Source of the DNA: an uncultured Oscillospiraceae bacterium
GTDB taxonomy: Bacteria > Bacillota > Clostridia > Oscillospirales > Oscillospiraceae
Reading direction: 5' to 3'
Assembly (NCBI GenBank): GCA_944385445.1
Contig: CALWXF010000007.1
Location: 11,976 to 75,975 of the forward strand
DNA length: 64,000 nt
The notes under the pieces are model-generated. The model was not told the origin of the DNA. It worked only from the letters and a program-made list of their open reading frames with translations, and ran no database searches. Positions 6,640 to 60,494 of this stretch are shown here, in pieces. The translations under genes were made by a program, and so were the position numbers. The first letter of the stretch is position 1. Each line of letters opens with the position of its first letter.

Positions 6640-6662
6640 ATGTTTTGAGCCTAGATAGAACG

Positions 6663-7006
6663 TGCTTCCTTCTCCGATTTCCCCGGTAGAACCCAGCGCC
6701 CTTCCGGGGACGCTCCGCTGGGGTAACTTTCTGCCGCCAGAAAGTCACCAAAGACCGCCAAAGGCGGGGCCTTCCCCCGCCTTGTGGAATCCACCCCGCG
6801 GTACTGGGAGCCCCTGCGCCTCCTTGTTTCGGCCCTTGGCATGATAGTGTCACATAGATGGCGTGGAACTTCTACAGAAAATACCTACTTCTCTAGCAGA
6901 CAGTGCTTCTATCGCCAGGGCCTTACCCTGGTGTGCCGCTGTTCCCAGCGGAGCGTCCCCGGCTGGGACGCTGGGTTTTGCCTGAGAAATTGGAGAAGAA
7001 CAAGCT
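6663..7006. repeat. Family A palindromic/MITE-like element, copy 1
   Basis: Perfect 19-bp IR CCGGGGACGCTCCGCTGGG (6704-6722 / 6944-6962), extended imperfectly outward; internal modules shared with copies at 13441, 23838 and 41953. Confidence 0.8.
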
Positions 7007-7013
7007 CCCTATA

Positions 7014-10746: not shown

Positions 10747-13371
10747 TCAGGACAGTTTTTGTTTCAGCTGATAGAGCAAATTCAACGCCTCGATGGGGGT
10801 GAGGGTGTCCACGGCGGTATTGCGCAGGGTGTCCAGCACCTCGCTCCCCGTCAAATCCCCCAAGGTCATCTGCTCCTGGGCCGGGGCGGACACGGTGCCC
10901 ACTGGGGCCACCGCCCCCTGGCTCTCCAGCTGGGCCAGAATCTCCCGGGCCCGGGCAATGACGGGGTTGGGCACGCCAGCCAGCTTGGCCACCTCGATGC
11001 CGTAGCTCTGGTCGGCCCCGCCGGGGATGATCTTGCGCAGGAAGACAATGTCGTCCTTCCGCTTTTTTACCGCAATGTGGAAGTTGTGTACCCCCTCCAG
11101 CTCCTGCTCCACGGCGGTGAGCTCGTGGTAGTGGGTGGCAAAGAGGGTCTTGGCCCCCAGTTTTTTGGTGTTGGCGCAGTACTCCAGCACCGCCCGGGCG
11201 ATGGACATGCCGTCATAGGTGGAGGTGCCCCGGCCGATCTCGTCCAGAATGAGCAGGGAGTGGCGGGTGGCGTTTTGGAGCAGCTGAGCCACCTCGCTCA
11301 TCTCCACCATGAAGGTGGACTGTCCGGCGGCCAGGTCGTCGGAGGCCCCGATGCGGGTGAACACCCGGTCCACCACGCCGATGTGGGCGGAGCGGGCGGG
11401 GACATAGCAGCCCATCTGGGCCATGAGCACAATGAGGGCCACCTGGCGCATGTAGGTGGATTTGCCTGCCATGTTGGGGCCGGTGATGATGGACAGGTGG
11501 TGCTGGGTTTCGTCCATGTGGGTGTCGTTGGGCACAAAGAGGGTGTCTTTCAGGGTATGCTCCACCACCGGGTGGCGGCCCTCCTGGATGTCAATGACCC
11601 CGCTCTCGTCCACCACCGGGCGGCAGTAGTTCCGCTCCACCGCCACCGTGGCGAAGGAGAGGAGCACGTCCAGCTGGGCCACGCTGCCCGCCGCCCGCTG
11701 CACCTCCCGCACCCGGGCGGACACTGTGTCCCGCAGCTGGCAGAACAGCTGGTACTCCAGGGCGGTGATGCGGGTCTGGGCGGAGAGAATCTCGTGCTCC
11801 AGGTCTTTGAGCTCGGGGGTGATGAACCGCTCGCAGTTGACCAGGGTCTGCTTGCGGATGTAGTCCTCGGGTACCAGGTCGTAGTTGGACTTGGATACCT
11901 CGATGTAGTAGCCGAACACCTTGTTATACCGGACCTTCAGGCTCTTGATGCCGGTGCGCTCCTTCTCCCGGCTCTCCAGGGCAATCACCATATCCGCCCC
12001 ATTGGTGAGGATGTCCCGCAGGTGGTCCACCTGCTGGTCGTAGCCGGGGCGGATGAAGTCGCCCTCCCGGATGGTGAAGGGGAGGCGGTGGTCGTCGTCC
12101 TCGTCCCGAATGGCGGAGTCGATCTCCTGCTGCAGGTCCTCCAGGCCCAGCATGCCGTCCTTGATGCCCTCCATGGCCCGGCCGGTCAGGGCCTCCAGCT
12201 GGTAGGCCAGGGCGGGGAGCATCCCCAGGCCCTGGGCCAGGGCCTTCATGTCCCGGGCGTTGGCGGAGCCGTAGCCCACTTTGCCGATGAGTCGCTCCAG
12301 GTCGGGCACCTGGCGCAGGGCATGGCTCAGCTCTTCCCGGGCCACCAGGTTGTCCACCAGGGCGGCCACCCCGTCCTGACGGCGGGTGATGGCCAGGGGG
12401 GAGCGCAAGGGGCGCTCCAGCCAGGAGCGAATCATCCGGTGGCCCATGGGGGTGCGGGTGTGGTCCAGCACCCAGAGAAGGGAGCCCTTCTTGTCCTTGC
12501 TGCGCATGGTCTCGGTGAGCTCCAGGTTGCGCCGGGCGGTGAGGTCCAGCTCCATGTACAGCCGCTGGTCGGGCTGCTCCACCACCAGGGGGCCCAGGTG
12601 GGTGAGGTCGGTCTTCTGAGTCTGGGTCAGGTACCCGGCCAGAGCGCCGGCGGCCTGGTAACAGGCCAGGTCTTGCTCGGGCAGGGAGGCGCCCGCCTCC
12701 CACAGCCCGCACACCTCCAGGGCGGACCCGGCAGCCTGGGGGTCAAACTGCTCTTCCGCTCCCGTCTGGCACAGGCAGTCCAGCCGCTGGCGTAAGAATT
12801 CCACCAGTTCCCGCTGTGCGGCGGCCTGGGGGGAGAGAATGGCCTCGCTGGGGGGACAGGCGGAGAGCTGGTTGCACAGATGGGGCAGCCAGTCGGTGCC
12901 CGAGAAGGGGGTGGTGTGGAACTGTCCGGTGGACACGTCGCACACCGCCAAGCCCGCCCGGTCCCCGTCCAGGTACACGCAGCAGATGTAGTTGTTGTTG
13001 TTCTCGTCCAGCATCACGTCGTCCATGGCGGTGCCGGGGGTGACGATGCGCACAATGTCCCGCTCCACCAGACCCTTGGCGGTGGCGGGGTCCTCCATCT
13101 GCTCGCAGATGGCCACCTTATAGCCCCGCTTGATGAGTCGGGCGATGTAGTTCTGGGCGGAGTGGTAGGGCACCCCGCACATGGGGGTGCGCTCCTCCTC
13201 CGGCTTGTTGCGGTCCCGGGTGGTGAGGGTGAGGCCCAGCTCCTGGGCGCCGATCTTGGCGTCCTCCTGGAACATCTCGTAAAAGTCCCCCAACCGGAAG
13301 AAAAGCAGGCAATCGGGATTGTCCTGCTTCATTTTGATATATTGTTTCATCATGGGGGTGAGTTCCGCCAT
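10747..13371 (-). CDS. mutS: DNA mismatch repair protein MutS
   Basis: MAELTPMMKQY..FFRLGDFYEMF; TGPNMAGKSTYMRQ; DEIGRGTST; FATHYHEL. Confidence 0.97.
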   Translation of the reverse strand: MAELTPMMKQYIKMKQDNPDCLLFFRLGDFYEMFQEDAKIGAQELGLTLTTRDRNKPEEERTPMCGVPYHSAQNYIARLIKRGYKVAICEQMEDPATAKGLVERDIVRIVTPGTAMDDVMLDENNNNYICCVYLDGDRAGLAVCDVSTGQFHTTPFSGTDWLPHLCNQLSACPPSEAILSPQAAAQRELVEFLRQRLDCLCQTGAEEQFDPQAAGSALEVCGLWEAGASLPEQDLACYQAAGALAGYLTQTQKTDLTHLGPLVVEQPDQRLYMELDLTARRNLELTETMRSKDKKGSLLWVLDHTRTPMGHRMIRSWLERPLRSPLAITRRQDGVAALVDNLVAREELSHALRQVPDLERLIGKVGYGSANARDMKALAQGLGMLPALAYQLEALTGRAMEGIKDGMLGLEDLQQEIDSAIRDEDDDHRLPFTIREGDFIRPGYDQQVDHLRDILTNGADMVIALESREKERTGIKSLKVRYNKVFGYYIEVSKSNYDLVPEDYIRKQTLVNCERFITPELKDLEHEILSAQTRITALEYQLFCQLRDTVSARVREVQRAAGSVAQLDVLLSFATVAVERNYCRPVVDESGVIDIQEGRHPVVEHTLKDTLFVPNDTHMDETQHHLSIITGPNMAGKSTYMRQVALIVLMAQMGCYVPARSAHIGVVDRVFTRIGASDDLAAGQSTFMVEMSEVAQLLQNATRHSLLILDEIGRGTSTYDGMSIARAVLEYCANTKKLGAKTLFATHYHELTAVEQELEGVHNFHIAVKKRKDDIVFLRKIIPGGADQSYGIEVAKLAGVPNPVIARAREILAQLESQGAVAPVGTVSAPAQEQMTLGDLTGSEVLDTLRNTAVDTLTPIEALNLLYQLKQKLS

Positions 13372-13440
13372 GGAGTGCACGACCTTTCTATTTGTTGTTG
13401 CGGGGCAATCAGCCAGGTATCTTGATACGTTCCCCGTCTC

Positions 13441-14010
13441 AGGCTTGCCAGCCTAGGGACGCGCTCCGCTGGGCCCGATTTCTCAGCGATGAGAAATCGG
13501 GGAAAGAATCGCCAAAGGCGGGGCCTTCCCCCGCCTTGTGGAATCCACCCCGCGGTACTGGGTGGCGTGTGCGTCCTTCTCTGTTCGGCCCTTGGCTGGG
13601 TGGGGTCACATAGATGGCGTGGAAATTCTATTGTAAGTCTCAGCTTCTACGACAAATAAAACTTCTACCTCCAGGGCCTTACCCTGGTGTGCAACTGTTC
13701 CTAGTTGCCGGAAGCCTGGCTCCCGGCGGCGGGAACGCTGCTTTTCCAAGGTAGGCCCGGGTATGGAAACCGCCCAGCTGTAGGGCCAGCTACCCAGGGT
13801 GGCCTGGTGTGGTGGCACAAATAGGGGCCACGGCAAGGGTCACGGGCCGAACAACAGCTTGACGCAGGTCCAGCCTCGTACCCAAAGGGAGGTCCTTAGG
13901 GGGGAACGCCCTAAGTGGCTTTTCGTCCATTTTGGCCACTCAAAATGGACCCCAGCGGAGCGTCCCTGCCGGGGGCGCAAATTTGCGTCTGAGAAATATG
14001 AGAAGAGGAA
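13441..14010. repeat. Family A palindromic/MITE-like element, copy 2
   Basis: Begins AGGCTTGCCAGCCT..CGCTCCGCTGGG and ends CCCCAGCGGAGCGTCCC (13966) plus a flank homologous to copy 1; carries both internal module sets. Confidence 0.8.
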
Positions 14011-14028
14011 AGTCCCTAGAGGGGAGAC

Positions 14029-14859
14029 TTACCCCTTGAAATTGGTGATTACATATACATATCGAATGTGTTCCACATCCGCACTGGGGCTCAGCACCGC
14101 CGAGCGGCTGATGCCGTCGGCCTCGGTCTGGATGCTCTCCACCTGGCCCACCAGCAGGCCGCCGGGGTACTTGCCCCCCAGCCCCGAGGTGGTCACCTGG
14201 TCGCCGCTGATGAGCTGGGCGTCCTGGGGGATATAGGTCATGCGCAGCTTGCCCTCTCCCATGAGAGTAAAATCCCCCTGGGCCATGGCGCTGTCGTCGG
14301 TGCGGGCCACCCGCACCCCCAGCTCCATGCCGGGGTCCAGCAGGGTGTCCACCAGAGCCCAGTTGGTGCCCACTTCCTTCACCACGCCCACCAGATTGCC
14401 GTACTGGTCGATGACGCAGTCGCCCGCCTCCACCTCCTGGCCGCTGCCCACGCTGATGGTGATTTGGTTGGCCCAGTTGGTGGTGGAACGCTGGATGACG
14501 GTGGCGGAGGCGTAGGTCCAGTCGGGGTGCTCCTGAGCTACCCCCAGCAGGGTTTGCAGCCGCTCATTTTCCCGCAGGGCGTCCTGCCCCTCCCGCACCT
14601 GCTCCTCCAACTCAGCCAGCTGCTCTTTGAGCTGCTCATTTTCCTCCAGCAGCTGGTCATACCCGGTGAGGCGGTCGTGCTGCCCCTGGAACCAGTTGGA
14701 GATGCCGGAGGTCAGCGACCCCACCGGGCGGGTGATGACCTGGAGGGCGTTGGTGATGGGGTTGGCCCCGGTGATGGCGGAGAGAATGGCCAGCAAGGCA
14801 GCCAGCAGCACCGCCGCTGCCACCAGCAGCCCTCCGTTGTTCCGGAAAAATCCCTTCAT
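14029..14859 (-). CDS. mreC: Rod shape-determining protein MreC
   Basis: N-terminal TM, coiled coil (ENEQLKEQL..ENERL), A.VI.RS..W...ITI..GS..GV..G, GLVG.V, TSGLGGKYP.GL.VG. Confidence 0.9.
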   Translation of the reverse strand: MKGFFRNNGGLLVAAAVLLAALLAILSAITGANPITNALQVITRPVGSLTSGISNWFQGQHDRLTGYDQLLEENEQLKEQLAELEEQVREGQDALRENERLQTLLGVAQEHPDWTYASATVIQRSTTNWANQITISVGSGQEVEAGDCVIDQYGNLVGVVKEVGTNWALVDTLLDPGMELGVRVARTDDSAMAQGDFTLMGEGKLRMTYIPQDAQLISGDQVTTSGLGGKYPGGLLVGQVESIQTEADGISRSAVLSPSADVEHIRYVYVITNFKG

Positions 14860-23787: not shown

Positions 23788-23837
23788 GTGCAAGGCGTAG
23801 GCCCTGCACGCTGTTTCGTTCGGTTCTGCCTTGGTTC

Positions 23838-24365
23838 AGGCTTACCAGCCTGGTGGGGACGCTCCGCTGGGGTCCATTTTGAGTGGCCAAAATAAGGAAC
23901 CTCCGATTCCCTACAGCATCGGAGTCTTGTGGCCCTTTTACGCCATAAATTCGTTGCATCTTCTGGAAATACACCAAGTATTTCTGCGAAGCTGCGTCTC
24001 TTTCTGACGCAAAATGTCTCACAATTCTCTCTCGCTTAGGGAATCGGACGTTCCTACCAAAACCCGCTTAGGGCGTTCCCGCCGCCGGGAGCCAGGCCGC
24101 CGAAAGCTGGGAACAGCGGCTCACCAGAGTAAAGCCCTGGCGATAGAAGGAGGACTGCACAGAGAAGCAGATACGTCCGGTAGAATCTCCACGCTATCTA
24201 TGTGACACGGACCAGGACCAGGGCCGAACAGAGAAGGACGCACTTTCCACCCAGTACCGGCGGGGTGGATACCACAAGGCGGGGGAAGGCCCCGCCTTTG
24301 GCGGTCTTTGGTGACTTTCTGGCGGCAGAAAGTCACCCTGCGGAGCAAACCCGGGCTGGCAAGCT
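23838..24365. repeat. Family A element, copy 3 (reverse orientation) with nested insert 23895-24055
   Basis: Ends AGGCTTACCAGCCTGGTGGGGACGCTCCGCTGGGG / GGCTGGCAAGCT; insert bounded by a 17/18 IR AGGAACCTCCGATTCCCT / AGGGAATCGGACGTTCCT. Confidence 0.8.
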
Positions 24366-24523
24366 GGATTCCAGGCTGGAAAACGGACGGAGACTTCGTC
24401 AAGCCCAGATGTTTGTTTGCCAAACCGTTGTAACAGAAAACAAACTGTGGTAAAATAACCAAGCTACTTTGAATATGAGGAAAACGCCTGTCCTCTGGGC
24501 AGACGGTATAAGGAGATGTTTCC

Positions 24524-26307: not shown

Positions 26308-26350
26308 AAGGGTCTGTTGCAAAATGGTGGTTTTGCAACAGACCCTTTTT
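26308..26350 (+). terminator. Intrinsic terminator
   Basis: AAGGGTCTGTTGCAAAA-TGGTGG-TTTTGCAACAGACCCTT-TTT. Confidence 0.85.
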
Positions 26351-26547
26351 GGTCAATCCCTCCGTCATGGCTACGCCATGCCACCTCCCTTTACACAAGG
26401 GAGGCTTTAGGCCTGGAAAAGACTTGCGGTTCGCGTTTTTGAAGATAAAATCGACGATTATCATGCAAAAAGTAATAACAGAATCGCCGCAGGACAAAGG
26501 CCCCCTTGTGCAAAGGGGGCTGTCACCGTAGGTGACTGGGGGATTGT
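26351..26547. repeat. Family B REP-like doublet (B1 minus 26351-26405, B2 plus 26496-26547)
   Basis: GCCTCCCTTGTGTAAAGGGAGG..GGAGGGATTG and GGCCCCCTTGTGCAAAGGGGGCTGTCACC..GGTGACTGGGGGATTG. Confidence 0.9.
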
Positions 26548-26609
26548 TTCCGGTGGGGAGTTGGACCGTCTGCGGATGTTGCAGCAGGCCCTTGCATCAA
26601 ATGCCTGTT

Positions 26610-27020
26610 TTATCGGTATTTCCCCGTCCAGCGGTAGTGCAGGGGGTCAAAGAGCACCAGACCCAGGACGAAGAGGACCATGTAGAGCACAAACATGGCG
26701 TTGATGAGGTAGCGGGCGTACACCTCCCAGGCGGGGACAAAGGGGAGGGTAATGCCAACAATCATGCCCAAGAGGGGCAGGGAGGTGAGGCCTCGGAACA
26801 GGTAGTGGAACAGGGCGGTGAGCCGGGGCCGGGGGGAGATGCGCATGAGCCAGGGGAAGAGCTTCTCTTGGGGAAACTGGCTGGCGTGCTGCTCCACGTC
26901 CCGGATGGTCTGTCCGGCGGAGGCCTCGCACAAATGCCCAATCCAGGCGCAGCACAGCCGACTCAACAGCCAGAATATAGCGCAGATGACGGTGTTGATG
27001 ACAAACAGGGTGATATCCAT
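26610..27020 (-). CDS. Hypothetical membrane protein
   Basis: GGAGGGG RBS; 136 aa with three hydrophobic segments. Confidence 0.65.
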   Translation of the reverse strand: MDITLFVINTVICAIFWLLSRLCCAWIGHLCEASAGQTIRDVEQHASQFPQEKLFPWLMRISPRPRLTALFHYLFRGLTSLPLLGMIVGITLPFVPAWEVYARYLINAMFVLYMVLFVLGLVLFDPLHYRWTGKYR

Positions 27021-27035
27021 GGAAATCCCCTCCTG

Positions 27036-28181
27036 TTAGAACGTGCTCAGATAGCCCAGGTCGTAGAGGAACCACTTCAACCAGGTGGTGTCGTAATCGG
27101 GGCAGTAGGCATAGAAAATCTTGGTCCCGTCCTGGACCACCGCCCCATAGTTCCCCTGGGTTTCCAGGGCGTAGAGGGTGTAGCCCTCCCCGGACTCCTC
27201 TGTGACCTGGGGATTTTGTGCGGCCACCAGCTCATAGAGCTGCTGTTGCAGCCCCTGGGCCAGGCTCTGCGCCTGGCTTTCCTGGGTCAGCACCATGTAC
27301 TCCATGTGCATCCCCTCATAGTCCACCAGAAGGGCGTCGGAGAGGGTGATGCCGGGGTAGGTCTCAGACAGCTGCCCCACGGCATTGACCGGGGGGAACC
27401 CCTCCTTGTCCAGGCGCTGGTACATGGCCTGGAAGTCGGAGAGGACAGACGGTGGGTCGGAGACCTCCGGGGCAGGGGCCTCCGAGGTAGGGGCTGTGGT
27501 GGCCTCCGGGGTGGAGGTGGTGGGGAGGAACTTGGAGGACAGCATGGGGAGGACCAGGAACACCAGTACCACCGCCACTACAAAGAGCTTTTGGGTGTAG
27601 CCCCGGCGGAAGCGGCGGCGCTGGGCCACCTCCGGCTCGGCGGCCTCAAAGGGTCCGGCGTAGGGGATGTCCTCGTACGGGTCCTCTGGGTTTTCCTCCT
27701 CTTCGTTTTCCCGCTTGGGGCGGTAGGGCTTGTAGCGGGAGCTGTCAAAGAAGTCCGCGGTCTCCGCCTGGATGTACTTCCCGTACCGGAACCCCAACAG
27801 GGTGAACATGGCCCACAGGACCAGCATAGCCGCCCCCAAGGCCCAGGTGTATTGGTAGAGGCGAGTGGCGAAAATCACCATCACCCCCACAAAATAGAGC
27901 TTGACGGGCAGGTTGGTGAGGGAGCAGTAGCGGGACATGGTGTAAAACTCTTTGGCGTAGCCCGAACGCTGTTCCATCCAGGCCCAGAGCTGCTCATGAC
28001 GGTCACGGTTGCGGTGCATGTGATGGTCCTCTGTCCGGGTCCACAGGTACATCTGGGCGTCCGCAGGCTTGAGTCCGGCGGTCATGTACAGGTAGCGGGA
28101 GAGAAGCTTGTCGGAGAGAAAGGACAGGGCGAACAGGACAAACAGAGAGATTAGAACGGGTTCACCAGGCATGGCACTCAA
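27036..28181 (-). CDS. Hypothetical multi-pass membrane protein with extracellular C-terminal domain
   Basis: AAGGAGG upstream (start may be ATG at 28172); several TM segments, acidic and T/P linkers; host-like codon usage. Confidence 0.7.
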   Translation of the reverse strand: MSAMPGEPVLISLFVLFALSFLSDKLLSRYLYMTAGLKPADAQMYLWTRTEDHHMHRNRDRHEQLWAWMEQRSGYAKEFYTMSRYCSLTNLPVKLYFVGVMVIFATRLYQYTWALGAAMLVLWAMFTLLGFRYGKYIQAETADFFDSSRYKPYRPKRENEEEENPEDPYEDIPYAGPFEAAEPEVAQRRRFRRGYTQKLFVVAVVLVFLVLPMLSSKFLPTTSTPEATTAPTSEAPAPEVSDPPSVLSDFQAMYQRLDKEGFPPVNAVGQLSETYPGITLSDALLVDYEGMHMEYMVLTQESQAQSLAQGLQQQLYELVAAQNPQVTEESGEGYTLYALETQGNYGAVVQDGTKIFYAYCPDYDTTWLKWFLYDLGYLSTF

Positions 28182-28292
28182 AAACCTCCTTTACGGTGCA
28201 AACGGTTTGACCAGGTGGCATTTTTTCGAAATGCTAACAGGCGTACCATGCCAGGGGACATGATACGCCTGTGTATAAATCTGTGTGTGGGA

Positions 28293-29735
28293 TTAGTAAG
28301 CCACGCCCCAGTACACCATGTGCTTGGCGGGCTTGCCGCACACGGGGCACACGTCGCCCAGGTGCTCCTGCTCCAGGGGGATGCAGCGGGAGGACACGCC
28401 CGCCACTTCCTTCATCTTCAGCTCGCAGGCTTCGTCGCCGCACCACATGGTCTTGGCAAAGCCGCCCTGGGTGGCCATCTTCTCCTTGACCTCCTCCAGG
28501 GTGGAGCAGGGGTAGGTGTTCTCGTCCAGGTTGCGCTTGGCCCGGTGGAAGAGGCTCTGCTGAATCTCCTCCAGCAGATTTTTCACGGTCTCCTCGATGT
28601 TGTCCAGGGAGACGAAGGACTTTTCACCGCTGTCCCGGCGCACCAGCACGCACTGGTTCTTCTCCATGTCCTTGGGACCCAGCTCCAGGCGCAGGGGCAC
28701 GCCCTTCATCTCGTACTCGGCAAACTTCCAGCCGGGAGACTGCTCGGAGGCGTCCATCTTCACCCGGATGCCGGCGGCCTTCAGCCGGTCGCACACGGCC
28801 TGGTTGGCCTCGATGACGCCGTCCTTGTGCTGGGCCACGGGGATGACGATGACCTGGGTGGGGGCGATGCGGGGGGGCAGCACCAGGCCATTGTTGTCGC
28901 CGTGGGTCATGATGACACCGCCGATGAGGCGGGTGGACACGCCCCAGGAGGTCTCAAAGGGGGTGTGCAGCTGGTTGTCCTTGCCGGCGAAGCTCACGCC
29001 GAAGGCACGGGCGAAGCCGTCGCCGAAGTAGTGGGAGGTGCCGGCCTGGAGGGCCTTCTTGTCGTGCATCATGCACTCCACGGTGTAGGTGGCCTCGGCG
29101 CCGGAGAACTTCTCCTTATCGGTCTTGCGGCCCTTCACCACGGGCATGGCCAGGTAGTTCTCGCAGAAGTCGGCGTAGATGTTGAACATGCGCTCGGTCT
29201 CTTCAATGGCCTCCTCGGCGGTGGCGTGCATGGTGTGGCCCTCCTGCCACAAAAATTCCCGGTGGCGCAGGAAGGGACGGCTGGTCTTCTCCCAGCGCAG
29301 CACGGAGCACCACTGGTTATACAGCTTGGGCAGGTCCCGGTGGGAGTGGATGATGTGGGAGTAGTGCTCACAGAAGAGGGTCTCGGAGGTGGGGCGGATG
29401 CAGTAGCGCTCCTCCAGCTCCTCGCTGCCGCCGAAGGTGACCCAGGCGCACTCAGGGGCGAAGCCCTCCACATGATCCTTCTCCTTCTGGAGCAGGGACT
29501 CGGGGATGAGCATGGGCAGATATACATTCTCGTGGCCGGTCTCCTTGAACTTCTCGTCCAGAATCTTCTGGAAGTTCTCCCAGATGGCGTAGCCATAGGG
29601 GCGCAGGATGAACATGCCTTTGATGGAAGAATAGTCAATCAGTTCTGCTTTGGTGCACACGTCGGTGAACCACTGGGCAAAGTCGGCCTCCATATCGGTG
29701 ATCTGGCTGACCTGTTTGCTTTTGTCTTGTGCCAT
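28293..29735 (-). CDS. proS: Proline--tRNA ligase (archaeal/eukaryote-like type)
   Basis: [14 protein letters not shown]; RPTSET; LNQW-like YNQWCSV.RWE; FLWQEGHT; QAGTSH; SWGVSTR; C-terminal ..AY. Confidence 0.95.
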
Positions 29736-31640: not shown

Positions 31641-31697
31641 CGTAAAAACGTCCTGCTGCACCCCGCAGCAGGACGTTTTTGTACTTTTGAAACTAAC

Positions 31698-31853
31698 GCC
31701 TCCCTTGTGCAAAGGGAGGTGGCCCGGCGTGAGCCGGGTCGGAGGGATTGACGGTACTGGGTATCCTATTTCAACTTGGCTTTGTTCGGTAGCCGACACA
31801 GACAATCCCTCAGTCAGCCTAACGGCTGCCAGCTCCCTTTACACAAGGAAGCC
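31698..31853. repeat. Family B doublet (B1 plus 31698-31752, B2 minus 31801-31853)
   Basis: Same two units, convergent, between pfkB and the ABC ATPase gene. Confidence 0.9.
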
Positions 31854-31862
31854 TTGCGCACA

Positions 31863-41923: not shown

Positions 41924-41952
41924 AGTGTACCTCCTTACGGAGAAATGAATAC

Positions 41953-42506
41953 AGGCTTGCCAGCCTGGTGGGGACGCTACCCGCTAGGGGTGACTTTCTG
42001 CTGCCAGAAAGGCACGAAAGACCACCAAAGGAGGGGCCTTCCCCTGGTGAGCCGCTGTTCCCAGCTATCGAAAGCCTGGCAGCCCAGTCCATGGGCTGCA
42101 CCGCACCAAAGGCTCCCCTGTGCAAGGGGAGCTGTCAGCCCGTAGGGCTGACTGAGGGGTTGACGGTAGGCAGCCGCAGACAATCCCTCCGAGCTGACTT
42201 CCGTCAGCCCACCTCCCTTTACACAAGGGAGGCGTTGAGTCTGGCGGTGACTGAGGCACCGCTGCTCCAGGGAAGGCCCGGAGGTGGAAAACACCTGGCC
42301 ATAGGGCCAGCTGCCATGGCGGCCTGGTGTGGTGGCAATATCAGGAGCCACAGCAAGGGTGACGGGCCGAGGATCAATTTGACGCAGTTCCAGTCTGGTA
42401 CCTCAGGGAGATTCTTAGGGGGGAACGCCCTAAGCGGGTTTTTCGTCTATTTTTGCCCGGTCAAAAATAGACCCCAGCGGAGCGTCCCCACCAGGCTGGC
42501 AAGCCT
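41953..42506. mobile_element. Family A MITE-like element, copy 4, with 26-bp perfect TIRs, AATAC duplication and a nested B doublet (42108-42233)
   Basis: AGGCTTGCCAGCCTGGTGGGGACGCT (41953-41978) / AGCGTCCCCACCAGGCTGGCAAGCCT (42481-42506); AATAC at 41948-41952 and 42507-42511. Confidence 0.75.
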
Positions 42507-42525
42507 AATACAGCCACATGGGAAC

Positions 42526-42577
42526 GGTCAATCCCTCAGTCAGCCTGGCGGCTGACAGCGCCCCCAGAGGGGAAGCC
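42526..42577 (-). repeat. Single degenerate family B2 unit
   Basis: GGTCAATCCCTCAGTCAGCCTGGCGGCTGACAGC..GGGGAAGCC. Confidence 0.8.
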
Positions 42578-42589
42578 AAGAGTGGGCCG

Positions 42590-45867: not shown

Positions 45868-45874
45868 AATAGGA

Positions 45875-45997
45875 AAAGGCTCCCCTTGTTGCAAGGGGAG
45901 CTGTCAGCCGTTAGGCTGACTGAGGGGATAAAACCAGGGAGGGACAATCCCCCCGACCCGGCGTACGCCGGGCCACCTCCCTTTACACAAGGGAGGC
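45875..45997. repeat. Family B doublet (B2 plus 45875-45930, B1 minus 45943-45997)
   Basis: Starts 2 nt after the prfB stop codon. Confidence 0.9.
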
Positions 45998-45999
45998 TA

Positions 46000-47121
46000 T
46001 TATTTGGTGGCCCAGTTGCCGGTGGCGGAGGCGGTGAGGTAGGCGTTGATGAAGCCGTCCAGGTCGCCGTCCATGACGGCGTTGATGTTGGAGGTCTCAA
46101 AGGCGGTGCGGTTGTCCTTCACCAGCTGGTAGGGCATGAACACATAGGACCGAATCTGGCTGCCCCACTCGATCTTCAGCTGCACGCCCTTGATGTCGGA
46201 GATCTTGTCCAGGTGCTCCTGCTCCTTGATCTGGATGAGCTTGGAGCGCAGCATCTTCATACAGGTCTCTCGGTTTTGCAGCTGGCTTCGCTCGGTCTGG
46301 CAGGCCACCACCAGGCCGGAGGGCTTGTGGATCAGTCGCACGGCGGAGGAGGTCTTGTTGACGTGCTGGCCGCCGGCGCCGGAGGCGCGGTAGACCTGCA
46401 TCTCAATGTCCTCGGGGCGGATCTCCACTTCCACGCTGTCGTCGATCTCGGGGGTCACCTCCACGGCGGCGAAAGAGGTCTGACGGCGGGCGTTGGCGTC
46501 GAAGGGGGAGACGCGCACCAGGCGGTGCACGCCGTGCTCACTCTTCAGGTAGCCGTAGGCGTTCTCACCGTCAATGCGGATGGTGGCGGACTTGATGCCC
46601 GCCTCGTCTCCGTCCTGGTAGTCCAGAATGGAGTAGGTAAAGCCGTGGCGCTCCGCCCAGCGGGTGTACATCCGGTAGAGCATCTGAGCCCAGTCCTGGG
46701 CCTCGGTGCCGCCGGCACCGGCCTGGAGGGAGACAATGGCGGGGGAGGGGTCGTACTCCCCGGACAGGAGGGTGGCCAGACGGGCCTCCTCCATGTTGCG
46801 GATGAGGCCCTCGAAGCCCTCTTCCACCTCGGGCACCAGGGATTCGTCCTCCTCCTCGTTGCCCATCTCACACATGACCATCAGGTCGTCCCAGGTGGAC
46901 AGACGCTTGGCCTGGGCGTTGATCTTGCCCTCCAGCTGGCTGATGCGCTGCTGGATCTTCCGGGCCTTCTCCACGTTGTCCCAGAACCCGTCGGAGGCGG
47001 ACTCCGCCTGGAGCATATCCAGCTCCCGCTCAGCGGCCTCCAGGTCCAGGGCCTGCCCCAGCTCTTCCAGCTCGGGCTTGAGGTTGTTGAGTTTTACCTT
47101 GTATTCGTCAAATTGCAGCAT
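46000..47121 (-). CDS. prfB: Peptide chain release factor 2, single continuous ORF
   Basis: GAGGTEAQDW; GVHRLVRVSPFD; GAGGQHVN; WGSQIRSY; SPF anticodon motif. Confidence 0.97.
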   Translation of the reverse strand: MLQFDEYKVKLNNLKPELEELGQALDLEAAERELDMLQAESASDGFWDNVEKARKIQQRISQLEGKINAQAKRLSTWDDLMVMCEMGNEEEDESLVPEVEEGFEGLIRNMEEARLATLLSGEYDPSPAIVSLQAGAGGTEAQDWAQMLYRMYTRWAERHGFTYSILDYQDGDEAGIKSATIRIDGENAYGYLKSEHGVHRLVRVSPFDANARRQTSFAAVEVTPEIDDSVEVEIRPEDIEMQVYRASGAGGQHVNKTSSAVRLIHKPSGLVVACQTERSQLQNRETCMKMLRSKLIQIKEQEHLDKISDIKGVQLKIEWGSQIRSYVFMPYQLVKDNRTAFETSNINAVMDGDLDGFINAYLTASATGNWATK

Positions 47122-49042: not shown

Positions 49043-49079
49043 AAAGGTAATGTGTGTCTTACCAACTTCGCAGAGGGAA

Positions 49080-49205
49080 ACAATCCCCCAGTCACCTGCG
49101 GTGACAGCCCCCTTTGCACAAGGGGGCCTAAGGGCAATGCCGTACCCAACGCCTCCCTTGTGTAAAGGGAGGTGGCCCGGCGTAAGCCGGGGCGGAGGGA
49201 TTGAC
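49080..49205. repeat. Family B doublet (B2 minus 49080-49128, B1 plus 49151-49205)
   Basis: Divergent pair beside the terminator hairpin at 49210-49245. Confidence 0.9.
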
Positions 49206-49259
49206 AAAGAAACAGGCGGTGCAGCGTTTGCTGCACCGCCGTTTTGGCGTTCTTGGAAC

Positions 49260-51778: not shown

Positions 51779-51881
51779 GCCAAAAAAGTGGGCCGCTGAG
51801 CAATCAGCGGCCCCTTTTTTCAAATGAAAAATAAAGAATGAAGAATGAAAATGCAGGTCCTGGGGTGCAGCGCACTCCAAA

Positions 51882-52016
51882 GCCTCCCTTGTGTAAAGGG
51901 AGGTGGGCTGACGTAAGTCAGCTCGGAGGGATTGACAGACCAGACCCTTCCGTCACCCTGCACGGTCAACCCCTCAGTCAGCCTTGCGGCTGACAGCTCC
52001 CCTTACACAGGGGAGC
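51882..52016. repeat. Family B doublet (B1 plus 51882-51936, B2 minus 51964-52016)
   Basis: Convergent pair with AAGAATG-like heptamer runs in the flanks. Confidence 0.9.
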
Positions 52017-52057
52017 CTTTTACCTGGCCATCCAGCCTTATTCTTCTTCATTTCCAT

Positions 52058-60158: not shown

Positions 60159-60185
60159 GGGAATGGCCTCCAAACTTCGAAATCA

Positions 60186-60426
60186 GCCTCCCTTGTGTAA
60201 AGGGAGGTGGCCCGGCGTTAGCCGGGTCGGAGGGATTGTCTGTCACCTGGCCTAGGTCAACCCCTCAGTCTCGTCGGTGCGGACTGTGTATCTCTCGCCT
60301 CGCCCCTGAGAGGCGGGGCAAGTCTCGCTCACGCCGTCGCACCTCCTCTCCCCACCGAACCCGCTTGCGCTGGGCTTCGGCGGGGACCCCGTAACGGGCT
60401 GCCAGCTCCCCTTGCACAGGGGAGCC
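60186..60426. repeat. Family B doublet; the B2 loop holds a ~126-nt two-hairpin insert (60271-60396)
   Basis: B1 60186-60240; B2 arms CCTCAGTC and GGCTGCCAGCTCCCC are split by the insert. Confidence 0.85.
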
Positions 60427-60494
60427 TTTTGTCGAGCCCTCCAGTTTGTGTCCAATGTTTCACGCTTCACTTCTCTCGCCGTCCCGGCCAAAAA

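Follow-up and report, generated by a model that had tools for sequence, protein, structure and literature searches.

A MITE-like family of non-coding palindromic repeats, probably non-autonomous, in intergenic DNA of an Oscillospiraceae bacterium

Introduction

REPINs and REP sequences, found with RAYT partners in Pseudomonas and enterobacteria, are abundant intergenic palindromic doublets that fold to long hairpins, carry compensatory changes in their arms, lack target-site duplications and are specific to particular clades. MITEs such as Correia in Neisseria, RUP in Streptococcus and Nezha in cyanobacteria are short, non-coding, multi-copy elements with terminal inverted repeats; they are intergenic, can be nested and vary in presence between strains. 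In BIMEs, in ERIC/IRU of enterobacteria and in BOX of S. pneumoniae, conserved blocks are combined modularly, size variants arise by indels at fixed points, the predicted fold is stable and no mobilising enzyme is known. The PATEs of IS200/IS605 have subterminal perfect hairpins at both ends and short base-pairing near the hairpin, without target-site duplications. Finally, the invertons of gut bacteria are segments of a few hundred bp with conserved inverted repeats, present at many loci, whose orientation varies between genomes.

The repeat family described here (family A) resembles each of these systems in the features just listed while departing from all of them. REPINs measure about 100 bp and have a RAYT partner, whereas a family A unit measures about 600 bp with a complex 400-bp interior and resides in a genome in which no RAYT/Y1 was found, the hairpins of IS200-like elements in relatives being unrelated to it. 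Unlike the MITEs named above, it has yielded neither a target-site duplication nor a parent IS with matching ends, its ends combine perfect hairpins with a loop complement, and whole interiors differ at orthologous loci. It has no sequence relationship to BIMEs, ERIC or BOX, its blocks are bounded by long inverted cores at fixed spacing, and sister genomes were seen to differ in its cassettes and in the orientation of its interior. The ends of IS200/IS605 elements are not inverted repeats of each other, whereas those of family A are; the IS200/IS605 guide sequence lies 5' of the hairpin foot and not in the loop, and no matching Y1 or TnpB was found for family A. In contrast to invertons, the one copy scanned contained no promoter-like site, flipped copies are diverged and no invertase is linked. 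Our literature search found no papers on MITEs or REPINs in this bacterial group.

A preliminary description, made from the sequence alone, had reported four copies of a modular 340-570 bp element with a shared end core and hairpins that change sequence but keep pairing, and had suggested either an undescribed non-autonomous element or a multi-copy structured RNA.

Results

A family A copy between mreC and mutS

The window, the whole stretch of 64,000 nucleotides analysed here, spans positions 11976-75975 of contig C7 in the 2.15-Mb, 37-contig, 91% complete genome of an Oscillospiraceae bacterium from chicken gut (G000). The copy under study (the 13441 copy) sits in the 648 bp that separate mreC (14029-14859) from mutS (10747-13380), both on the minus strand. 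On the minus strand mreC lies upstream of it and mutS downstream, and about 650 bp of highly structured DNA (13380-14029) thus parts mutS from the preceding gene, the separation in relatives being 48-57 bp. The copy is made up as follows (window positions).

13416-14017, no strand: entire family A copy, between mreC and mutS; absent from the equivalent gap in genomes G002 and G012
13416-13455, plus: outer arm of type a, including the small hairpin CAGGCTTGCCAGCCT; from the consensus of 74 type-a arms
13456-13473, plus: left core GGGACGCGCTCCGCTGGG, a variant with a GC insertion; the same variant occurs at this locus in BRZ_QR bin68
13474-13501, plus: left end hairpin CCCGATTTCTCA-GCGA-TGAGAAATCGGG with a 12-bp perfect stem; read from the sequence
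13502-13512, plus: A-rich linker GAAAGA and ATCGC, the complement of the loop GCGAT; from loop-to-downstream covariation
13517-13535, plus: conserved hairpin GGCGGGGCCTTCCCCCGCC, among the most conserved stretches (0.94-0.96)
13570-13724, no strand: central cassette containing GTCACATAGATGGCGTGGA and CCAGGGCCTTACCCTGG; a non-homologous 182-bp cassette in a 95%-identical strain (L134)
13895-13915, plus: conserved hairpin CTTAGGG-GGGAACG-CCCTAAG, weakly terminator-like; read from the sequence
13914-13950, minus: right end module, with hairpin GTCCATTTTG-AGTGGC-CAAAATGGAC, linker GAAAA and GCCACT as the loop complement (minus-strand reading); from sequence and module alignment
13951-13966, minus: right core GGGACGCTCCGCTGGG, exact match
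13967-14017, minus: outer arm of type b, with hairpin GGCGCAAATTTGCGTC followed by TGAGAAATATGAGAAGAGGAAAGTCCC; from the consensus of 27 type-b arms

The element initially sized at 340-570 bp is real but slightly larger, as its conserved outer arms extend the studied copy to about 13416-14017. The empty-site comparison proposed at the outset showed that G002 and G012 lack the copy; their mreC-mutS gaps measure 48 bp and 57 bp respectively, and the sequence in them is too diverged for exact boundaries. In Candidatus Enterenecus faecium (G008), the sister genome used for orthologue comparison, the copy is 100% identical over 497 bp, which appears to reflect local variation.

Architecture of the family

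The exact 16-mer core GGGACGCTCCGCTGGG occurs five times in the window (6707 plus, 6944 minus, 13951 minus, 23856 plus and 42473 minus) against 0.2 expected, and degenerate partner cores lie at 13456-13473 (the GC insertion), about 41971 and about 24336. This bears out the four copies with a shared end core, the other three of which are listed here.

6655-7010, plus: copy 1 (the 6663 copy), a deletion derivative without the right half, joined at the short repeat CCCAGC and bearing a b-type arm on either side
23820-24393, minus: copy 3 (the 23838 copy), with a degenerate second core and a 160-bp MITE nested at 23894-24056
41945-42578, plus: copy 4 (the 41953 copy), its left interior shortened where two GGGCCTT-type hairpins have fused; it holds a nested family B doublet (about 42096-42236), with one more B unit outside

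The canonical unit has two inverted cores of 16-18 bp (GGGACGCTCCGCTGGG) about 513 bp apart, with an outer arm of about 50 bp on each side. Conservation reaches about 50 bp beyond each core, and two kinds of arm can be told apart: type a bears the hairpin CAGGCTTGCCAGCCTG, its consensus (n = 74) being (C)AGGCTTGCCAGCCTGGTG preceded by a degenerate GGTTGTCCGTCTAACC-like stretch, and type b reads ..GGAGGGATTGTCCTTCTCCGATTTCTCAGGCGCAAACCAGCGCCCC... The usual order is b-arm, core, 'TTTCT' hairpin, interior, 'TTTTG' hairpin, core, a-arm. The interior of the 13441 copy has the minority arrangement, with the a-arm next to the TTTCT hairpin and the b-arm next to the TTTTG hairpin; it is one of 3-4 reversed copies in the genome, against about 13-20 canonical ones. 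Measured from each core to the next inverted core, 56 of 79 pairs are 480-530 bp apart, and an ORF is enclosed in none of the 79. Ca. E. avicola has a minimal form, a core-hairpin-core palindrome of 64 bp (L043), the common form being the 513-bp unit.

With a whole unit of about 600 bp that has no coding sequence and a family interior at 67 loci, family A is as short (below about 800 bp), non-coding and multi-copy as a MITE, and its termini are inverted repeats in that both the 16-18 bp cores and the architecture of the outer arms are inverted.

Copy number, context and distribution

The four copies of the preliminary description are all present, but the family is far larger, with its interior at 67 loci in the genome and 57 cores at no more than one mismatch. 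Iterative blastn gave about 135 loci covering 45 kb, or 2.1% of the genome; the nesting of B units in A copies brings the associated family B into this set. Family A loci are almost all intergenic, only 5 of 67 overlapping gene calls from a crude ORF model. With the same model, the flanking gene pairs were tandem, convergent and divergent in the ratio 40:17:6, compared with 574:204:223 genome-wide, so that divergent gaps are depleted (6 of 63 loci versus 22% of all intergenic gaps). Orientation showed no bias, 21 copies pointing the same way as the neighbouring genes and 19 the opposite way.

In the genus (Ca. Enterenecus and relatives), about 14 of 78 genomes have multiple copies of the core, against 0-1 for a reversed-pattern control; the compared genomes are mostly MAGs, in which repeats and IS elements are under-assembled, and contigs of several relatives end at cores. 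A search of 401 genomes, representing 176 genera of the order, gave the exact core in this genus alone. Named carriers are Candidatus Enterenecus faecium, E. avicola, several uncultured Oscillospiraceae MAGs, 'Pseudoflavonifractor capillosus An386a' and a human-gut MAG. No match to family A was found in plasmid and phage collections; the single viral-contig match was a chance 17-mer inside a gene.

Outside the carrier genus, the core turns up in Faecalibacterium langellae CNCM I-4541 (L065:2323-2416), where six tandem units of the 14-mer GGGGACGCTCCGCT immediately follow a gene. Within the source genome the repeat loci are unevenly spread, with about 2 per 10 kb on contigs C4, C7, C8 and C13 and none on C2, C5, C6, C12, C14 and C16 (48-153 kb); this could reflect regional clustering or mixed binning.

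End hairpins keep perfect pairing while their sequence drifts

Each end module consists, in order, of the core, a stem of 10-12 bp, a loop of 4-6 nt, the return stem, an A-rich linker (GAAAA or CAAAGA) and a loop complement of 4-5 nt that matches the 3' part of the loop. All four hairpins quoted in the preliminary description were found and are perfectly paired, and they are members of a larger set: about 17 stem alleles occur, including GTGAC, GTAAC, CCCGA, CCCCC, CCCCA, GTCCA, GCCCA, GGTTCC, GGTTTC, GGTGCC, GGTACC and GTCTA. Stems are perfectly Watson-Crick in 111 of 119 distinct modules, the mismatches including one G·T versus four A·C. In an alignment of 15 modules from three species, 89.9% of cells are paired versus 66.5% in shuffles (0 of 500 reaching it), and the covariation score is 0.673 versus 0.09-0.14 when partners are slid; kinship among copies inflates these statistics, and the argument is that associated alleles are complementary to each other.

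The loop and its downstream complement covary as well, with at least six complementary alleles (TGGC/GCCA, CGGG/CCCG, CGGC/GCCG, GCGAT/ATCGC, TGGG/CCCA and CGCA/TGCG), and such complementarity is also seen in divergent families of genomes G017 and G002. When partners were shuffled, the mean complementary run was 2.82 +/- 0.10, compared with the observed 3.96, and in the 15-module alignment three of the five loop-to-downstream pairs have changed on both sides. Some loops are flipped, for instance CCGC where GCGG would pair. This second helix could be an alternative hairpin, a pseudoknot-like feature of single strands or a by-product of template switching.

The 13441 copy is predicted to fold into a branched rod closed by a core-core helix, with z = -8.9 against shuffles as ssDNA (plus strand) and z = -9.3 as RNA (minus strand). 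We considered an RNA function for the copies, either as genes for a structured RNA in many copies or as cis-acting RNA stabilisers, terminators or insulators, with the hairpins and loop helix as selected secondary or pseudoknot structure. The strong RNA fold fits this, as do the covarying stems, the loop-to-downstream helix with its A-rich linker, which is arranged as in H-type pseudoknots, and the deviation from consensus, which is 7.6% in paired and 19% in unpaired columns. However, only one G·T was present in about 1,300 hairpin stem pairs, unlike RNA helices, and the family alignment folds about equally on both strands (-129 and -134 kcal/mol). An alignment-wide excess of G·T on one strand (150 versus 39) was discarded as an RNA signal, being largely due to two fixed pairs in the structure predicted on that strand; the well-defined end hairpins have no such asymmetry. 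Nor does the RNA interpretation agree with the unbiased 21:19 gene orientation, with the lack of a sigma-70-like promoter site in the 13441 copy, the one scanned, or with the Rfam search, in which the elements had no match at gathering thresholds and only chance matches of 10-14.5 bits at E<=10. Orthologous copies also evolve like ordinary intergenic DNA (see below), distribution within the genus is patchy, and sister genomes have whole interiors flipped or replaced. The structured RNA suggested in the preliminary description is thus disfavoured, and we regard it as unlikely. An omega-RNA of TnpB/IscB was likewise rejected: the only TnpB signal was a 19-bit, sub-threshold PF07282 match, and neither HEARO nor any other Rfam family matched.

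Because wobble pairs are nearly absent over about 1,300 stem pairs in spite of many stem alleles, the sequences argue that pairing is kept at the DNA level and not by RNA folding. Correction of quasi-palindromes by template switching is an established process in E. coli. A comparable process could keep the family A hairpins perfect as DNA; alternatively, hairpinned DNA may be needed in mobilisation.

Interiors differ by cassette, deletion, nesting and orientation

The conserved blocks GGCGGGGCCTTCCCCCGCC, GTCACATAGATGGCGTGGA, CCAGGGCCTTACCCTGG and CTTAGGGGGGAACGCCCTAAG are all present and do occur in different combinations, as first described. At C1:191306 and C13:35240 a whole hairpin cassette (stem, loop, stem, linker and loop complement) differs between the source genome and Ca. 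E. faecium while the flanks are identical. The 95%-identical metagenome strain has, in place of the middle 154 bp of the 13441 copy, the non-homologous 182-bp cassette, which is also found in other copies, and one orthologous stem has a compensated double change (CCCGA..TCGGG to CCCAA..TTGGG). Deletion at a short repeat joined the interior CCCAGC to the right core in the 6663 copy, a 194-bp internal indel is bounded by GGGAACGCC, and two GGGCCTT-type hairpins are fused in the 41953 copy. Nesting is equally evident. The 160-bp MITE with inverted repeats GGAACCTCCGATTCCCTA / TAGGGAATCGGACGTTCC lies in the right-type hairpin of the 23838 copy (23894-24056), and the same MITE (a 162-bp insert) is present at the equivalent hairpin of the 13441 copy (about 13927) in Ca. 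E. faecium but not in the source genome; family B doublets are nested within A copies; and in a human-gut MAG (MGYG-HGUT-00339, L053:4262-5385) an IS of the IS30 family with a 354-aa transposase splits the loop of a family A end hairpin, with CCCA of the loop repeated on both sides. These comparisons of sequence indicate that the apparent interchangeability of modules is a product of recombination, deletion, nesting and inversion, and not of independent modular design.

Orientation also differs between genomes. At 5 of the 13 positions shared with Ca. E. faecium the interiors are opposite and 80-83% identical, while arms and flanks are collinear and 85-97% identical; one flank at the discordant loci is often only 84-88% identical. 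At the 13441 locus of BRZ_QR bin68 the cores and arms are kept around a shorter and oppositely oriented interior. Neither of the two genomes contains a near-identical donor for the replaced interiors, the best paralogue being 85-89% identical. Independent occupation of the same docking site during a burst, recombination of old alleles from more distant relatives and chimeric assembly of metagenome genomes at repeats are all possible sources of the discordant interiors.

We asked whether the core-to-core segment is an invertible or exchangeable cassette on which a dedicated site-specific recombinase acts at the 18-bp inverted cores, as in a multi-locus inverton or shufflon. Strict conservation of the inverted cores, their fixed spacing of about 513 bp, the opposite interiors between collinear arms at 5 of 13 positions and at loci in other relatives, and the co-existence of both arrangements in one genome would all be expected of such a system. 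But the flipped interiors are not simple in situ inversions because they are only 80-83% identical. Furthermore, the bias toward canonical copies opposes rapid switching, the one further assembly of the 13441 locus obtained, via the flanking MreC, is identical and in the same orientation, that copy contains no promoter-like site inside it (the one copy scanned), and no recombinase is linked to the elements. A dedicated inversion system is therefore rather improbable. A related idea is that the end modules are recognition structures of an undescribed, hairpin-guided and site-specific exchange, in which the 513-bp cassette docks either way into a palindromic 'shell' of a- and b-arms. If true, this would explain why the same loci of sister genomes hold different and oppositely oriented interiors. 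The fixed core spacing, the conserved arm shell and the orientation discordance fit a switch as well as an exchange; the diverged sequence of the flipped interiors speaks against both, as does the lack of any recombinase linked to the elements. We hold the exchange to be a doubtful proposal. An invertase-driven multi-locus switch or a site-specific cassette exchange is a possible outcome, and would be an interesting one.

No mobiliser and no general target-site duplication was found

The absence of a transposase, noted before for the window, extends to the whole 91% complete assembly for six families: Y1 (PF01797), IS110, rve, DDE_Tnp_1 and IS256 transposases gave no match above threshold, and TnpB gave the sub-threshold 19-bit match mentioned above. 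An autonomous copy, looked for by core-pair spacing, did not emerge either, since no core pair encloses a transposase in the source genome, in the examined sequence of Ca. E. faecium or at the other loci. Two 5.1-kb core pairs in G042 proved to be host genes between separate copies, the sole case with an ORF is the human-gut MAG locus with its unrelated nested IS30, and the 3-kb and 0.7-kb insertions specific to Ca. E. faecium hold ordinary regulator or membrane genes. A RAYT or IS200 was rejected as mobiliser: PF01797 gave no match in the source genome and, although present in 28 of 78 genus genomes, does not track the repeat. The Y1 elements of relatives are ordinary IS200-like units of about 700 bp with CCCCGGC hairpins, unlike family A. 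They are low in GC, encode a 174-aa Y1, carry hairpins CCCCGGC-TGTG-GCCGGGG and were seen on tiny contigs at the following places.

L127 (G008:C18): IS200-like element, unrelated to family A
L129 and L130 (G042:C22 and C23): IS200-like elements, unrelated to family A
L128:540-1230 (G053:C204): IS200-like element, unrelated to family A

Of nine copies with a-type arms at both ends, a single one has a flanking direct repeat (AATAC at the 41953 copy), the other flanks being inverted or unrelated, so DDE cut-and-paste with a 5-bp duplication is not general; the true termini of family A are uncertain, and a duplication further out stays conceivable. The compared genomes yielded no clean pair of filled and empty sites with well-conserved flanks for a whole A unit.

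Evolutionary rate and age

Identity between the source genome and Ca. E. faecium is 91.2% at repeat loci and 91.4% in other intergenic DNA, compared with 88.2% at third and 97.6% at second codon positions. Because orthologous repeats are as identical as other intergenic DNA, no special constraint acts on them, and no extra purifying selection was seen. Full-length paralogues within the genome are 63-89% identical (mean 79%), and therefore no recent burst has taken place; we infer that the last activity of family A fell at about the divergence of the two genomes.

These values bear on the possibility that family A copies are old relics which the host maintains as REP-like motifs of structural DNA or of mRNA, for instance as protein-binding sites at the core or as barriers to read-through, mobility being no longer needed. 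An assembly in which neither a transposase nor recent copies were found would suit such relics, and so would the high conservation of the cores and two internal hairpins across copies, the depletion between divergent genes and the 14-bp tandem array of the core motif after a gene in F. langellae. By contrast, the missing extra constraint on orthologues is at odds with host maintenance, as are the many derivatives that lack half of the element and the close species that lack it at given sites without any obvious replacement. We give host-kept relics a small chance of being the explanation.

Family B and a further insertion

Family B is a separate mobile family of double-hairpin units whose GGAGGGATTG / GAGGGGTTG termini resemble the distal ends of family A outer arms. 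Its units in the window are as follows.

26348-26560: family B
31689-31861: family B
42096-42236: family B
42526-42578: family B
45874-46008: family B
49074-49206: family B
51861-52035: family B
60179-60444: family B

Between species, family B differs by a 64-bp single unit right after a stop codon, by insertion of a 162-bp doublet and by 130-bp expansions replacing the second hairpin. The 1.9-kb segment at 26350-28293 contains two minus-strand genes with family B units at one boundary (26348-26560), and only 12 bp are found there in An386a. Outside the window, a 398-bp insertion at C13:51142-51541 of the source genome has no counterpart in Ca. E. faecium; it contains a 29-codon hydrophobic ORF (MEYVTFSDLVQIGLLIVGIIGLFQLNKRK) between two terminator-like hairpins and, judged by its sequence, looks like a module of the type I toxin-antitoxin style.

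Discussion

Family A is probably to be classed with MITEs, REPINs and BIMEs, as a palindromic DNA repeat that is non-autonomous, has no coding sequence and came to occupy the intergenic regions of one clade within a single genus. Of the two suggestions in the preliminary description, the undescribed non-autonomous element is the one that largely stands, being consistent with non-coding, intergenic copies with inverted repeats, variable presence, nesting, patchy distribution and no Rfam, plasmid or phage match; the part that failed to materialise is a target-site duplication and a parent transposase. For this reason, the evidence fits a MITE-like family and not a demonstrated MITE. The full-length Rfam match that would have spoken for a described family was not found.

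The best reading is that family A no longer spreads in this genome and is being reshuffled by recombination. Its canonical unit consists of b-arm, 18-bp core, end module, an interior of about 400 bp forming a branched rod, end module, inverted core and a-arm. In the model that we propose, an enzyme supplied in trans would have recognised the inverted cores together with the hairpinned ends and spread the family at about the time when the source genome and Ca. E. faecium diverged. That enzyme would now be missing from the genome, or be unassembled in it, and recombination across the conserved blocks would later have reshuffled the copies.

The A/B repeat network takes up about 2% of this small genome of a gut bacterium, and metagenomes are almost the only source of knowledge on its group; the family A repeats break assemblies and adjoin core genes such as mreC and mutS. 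With about 17 stem alleles and almost no wobble, family A also lends itself, as a natural data set, to studying how DNA palindromes stay perfect as their sequence changes. Should it be only an inactive relic, it would still serve as a strain marker and as a warning in binning and assembly. Described MITEs and REPs do not normally show covarying loop-to-downstream pairing or an exchange of interiors at orthologous loci, and these features may point to an unrecognised mechanism of mobilisation or recombination in Oscillospiraceae.
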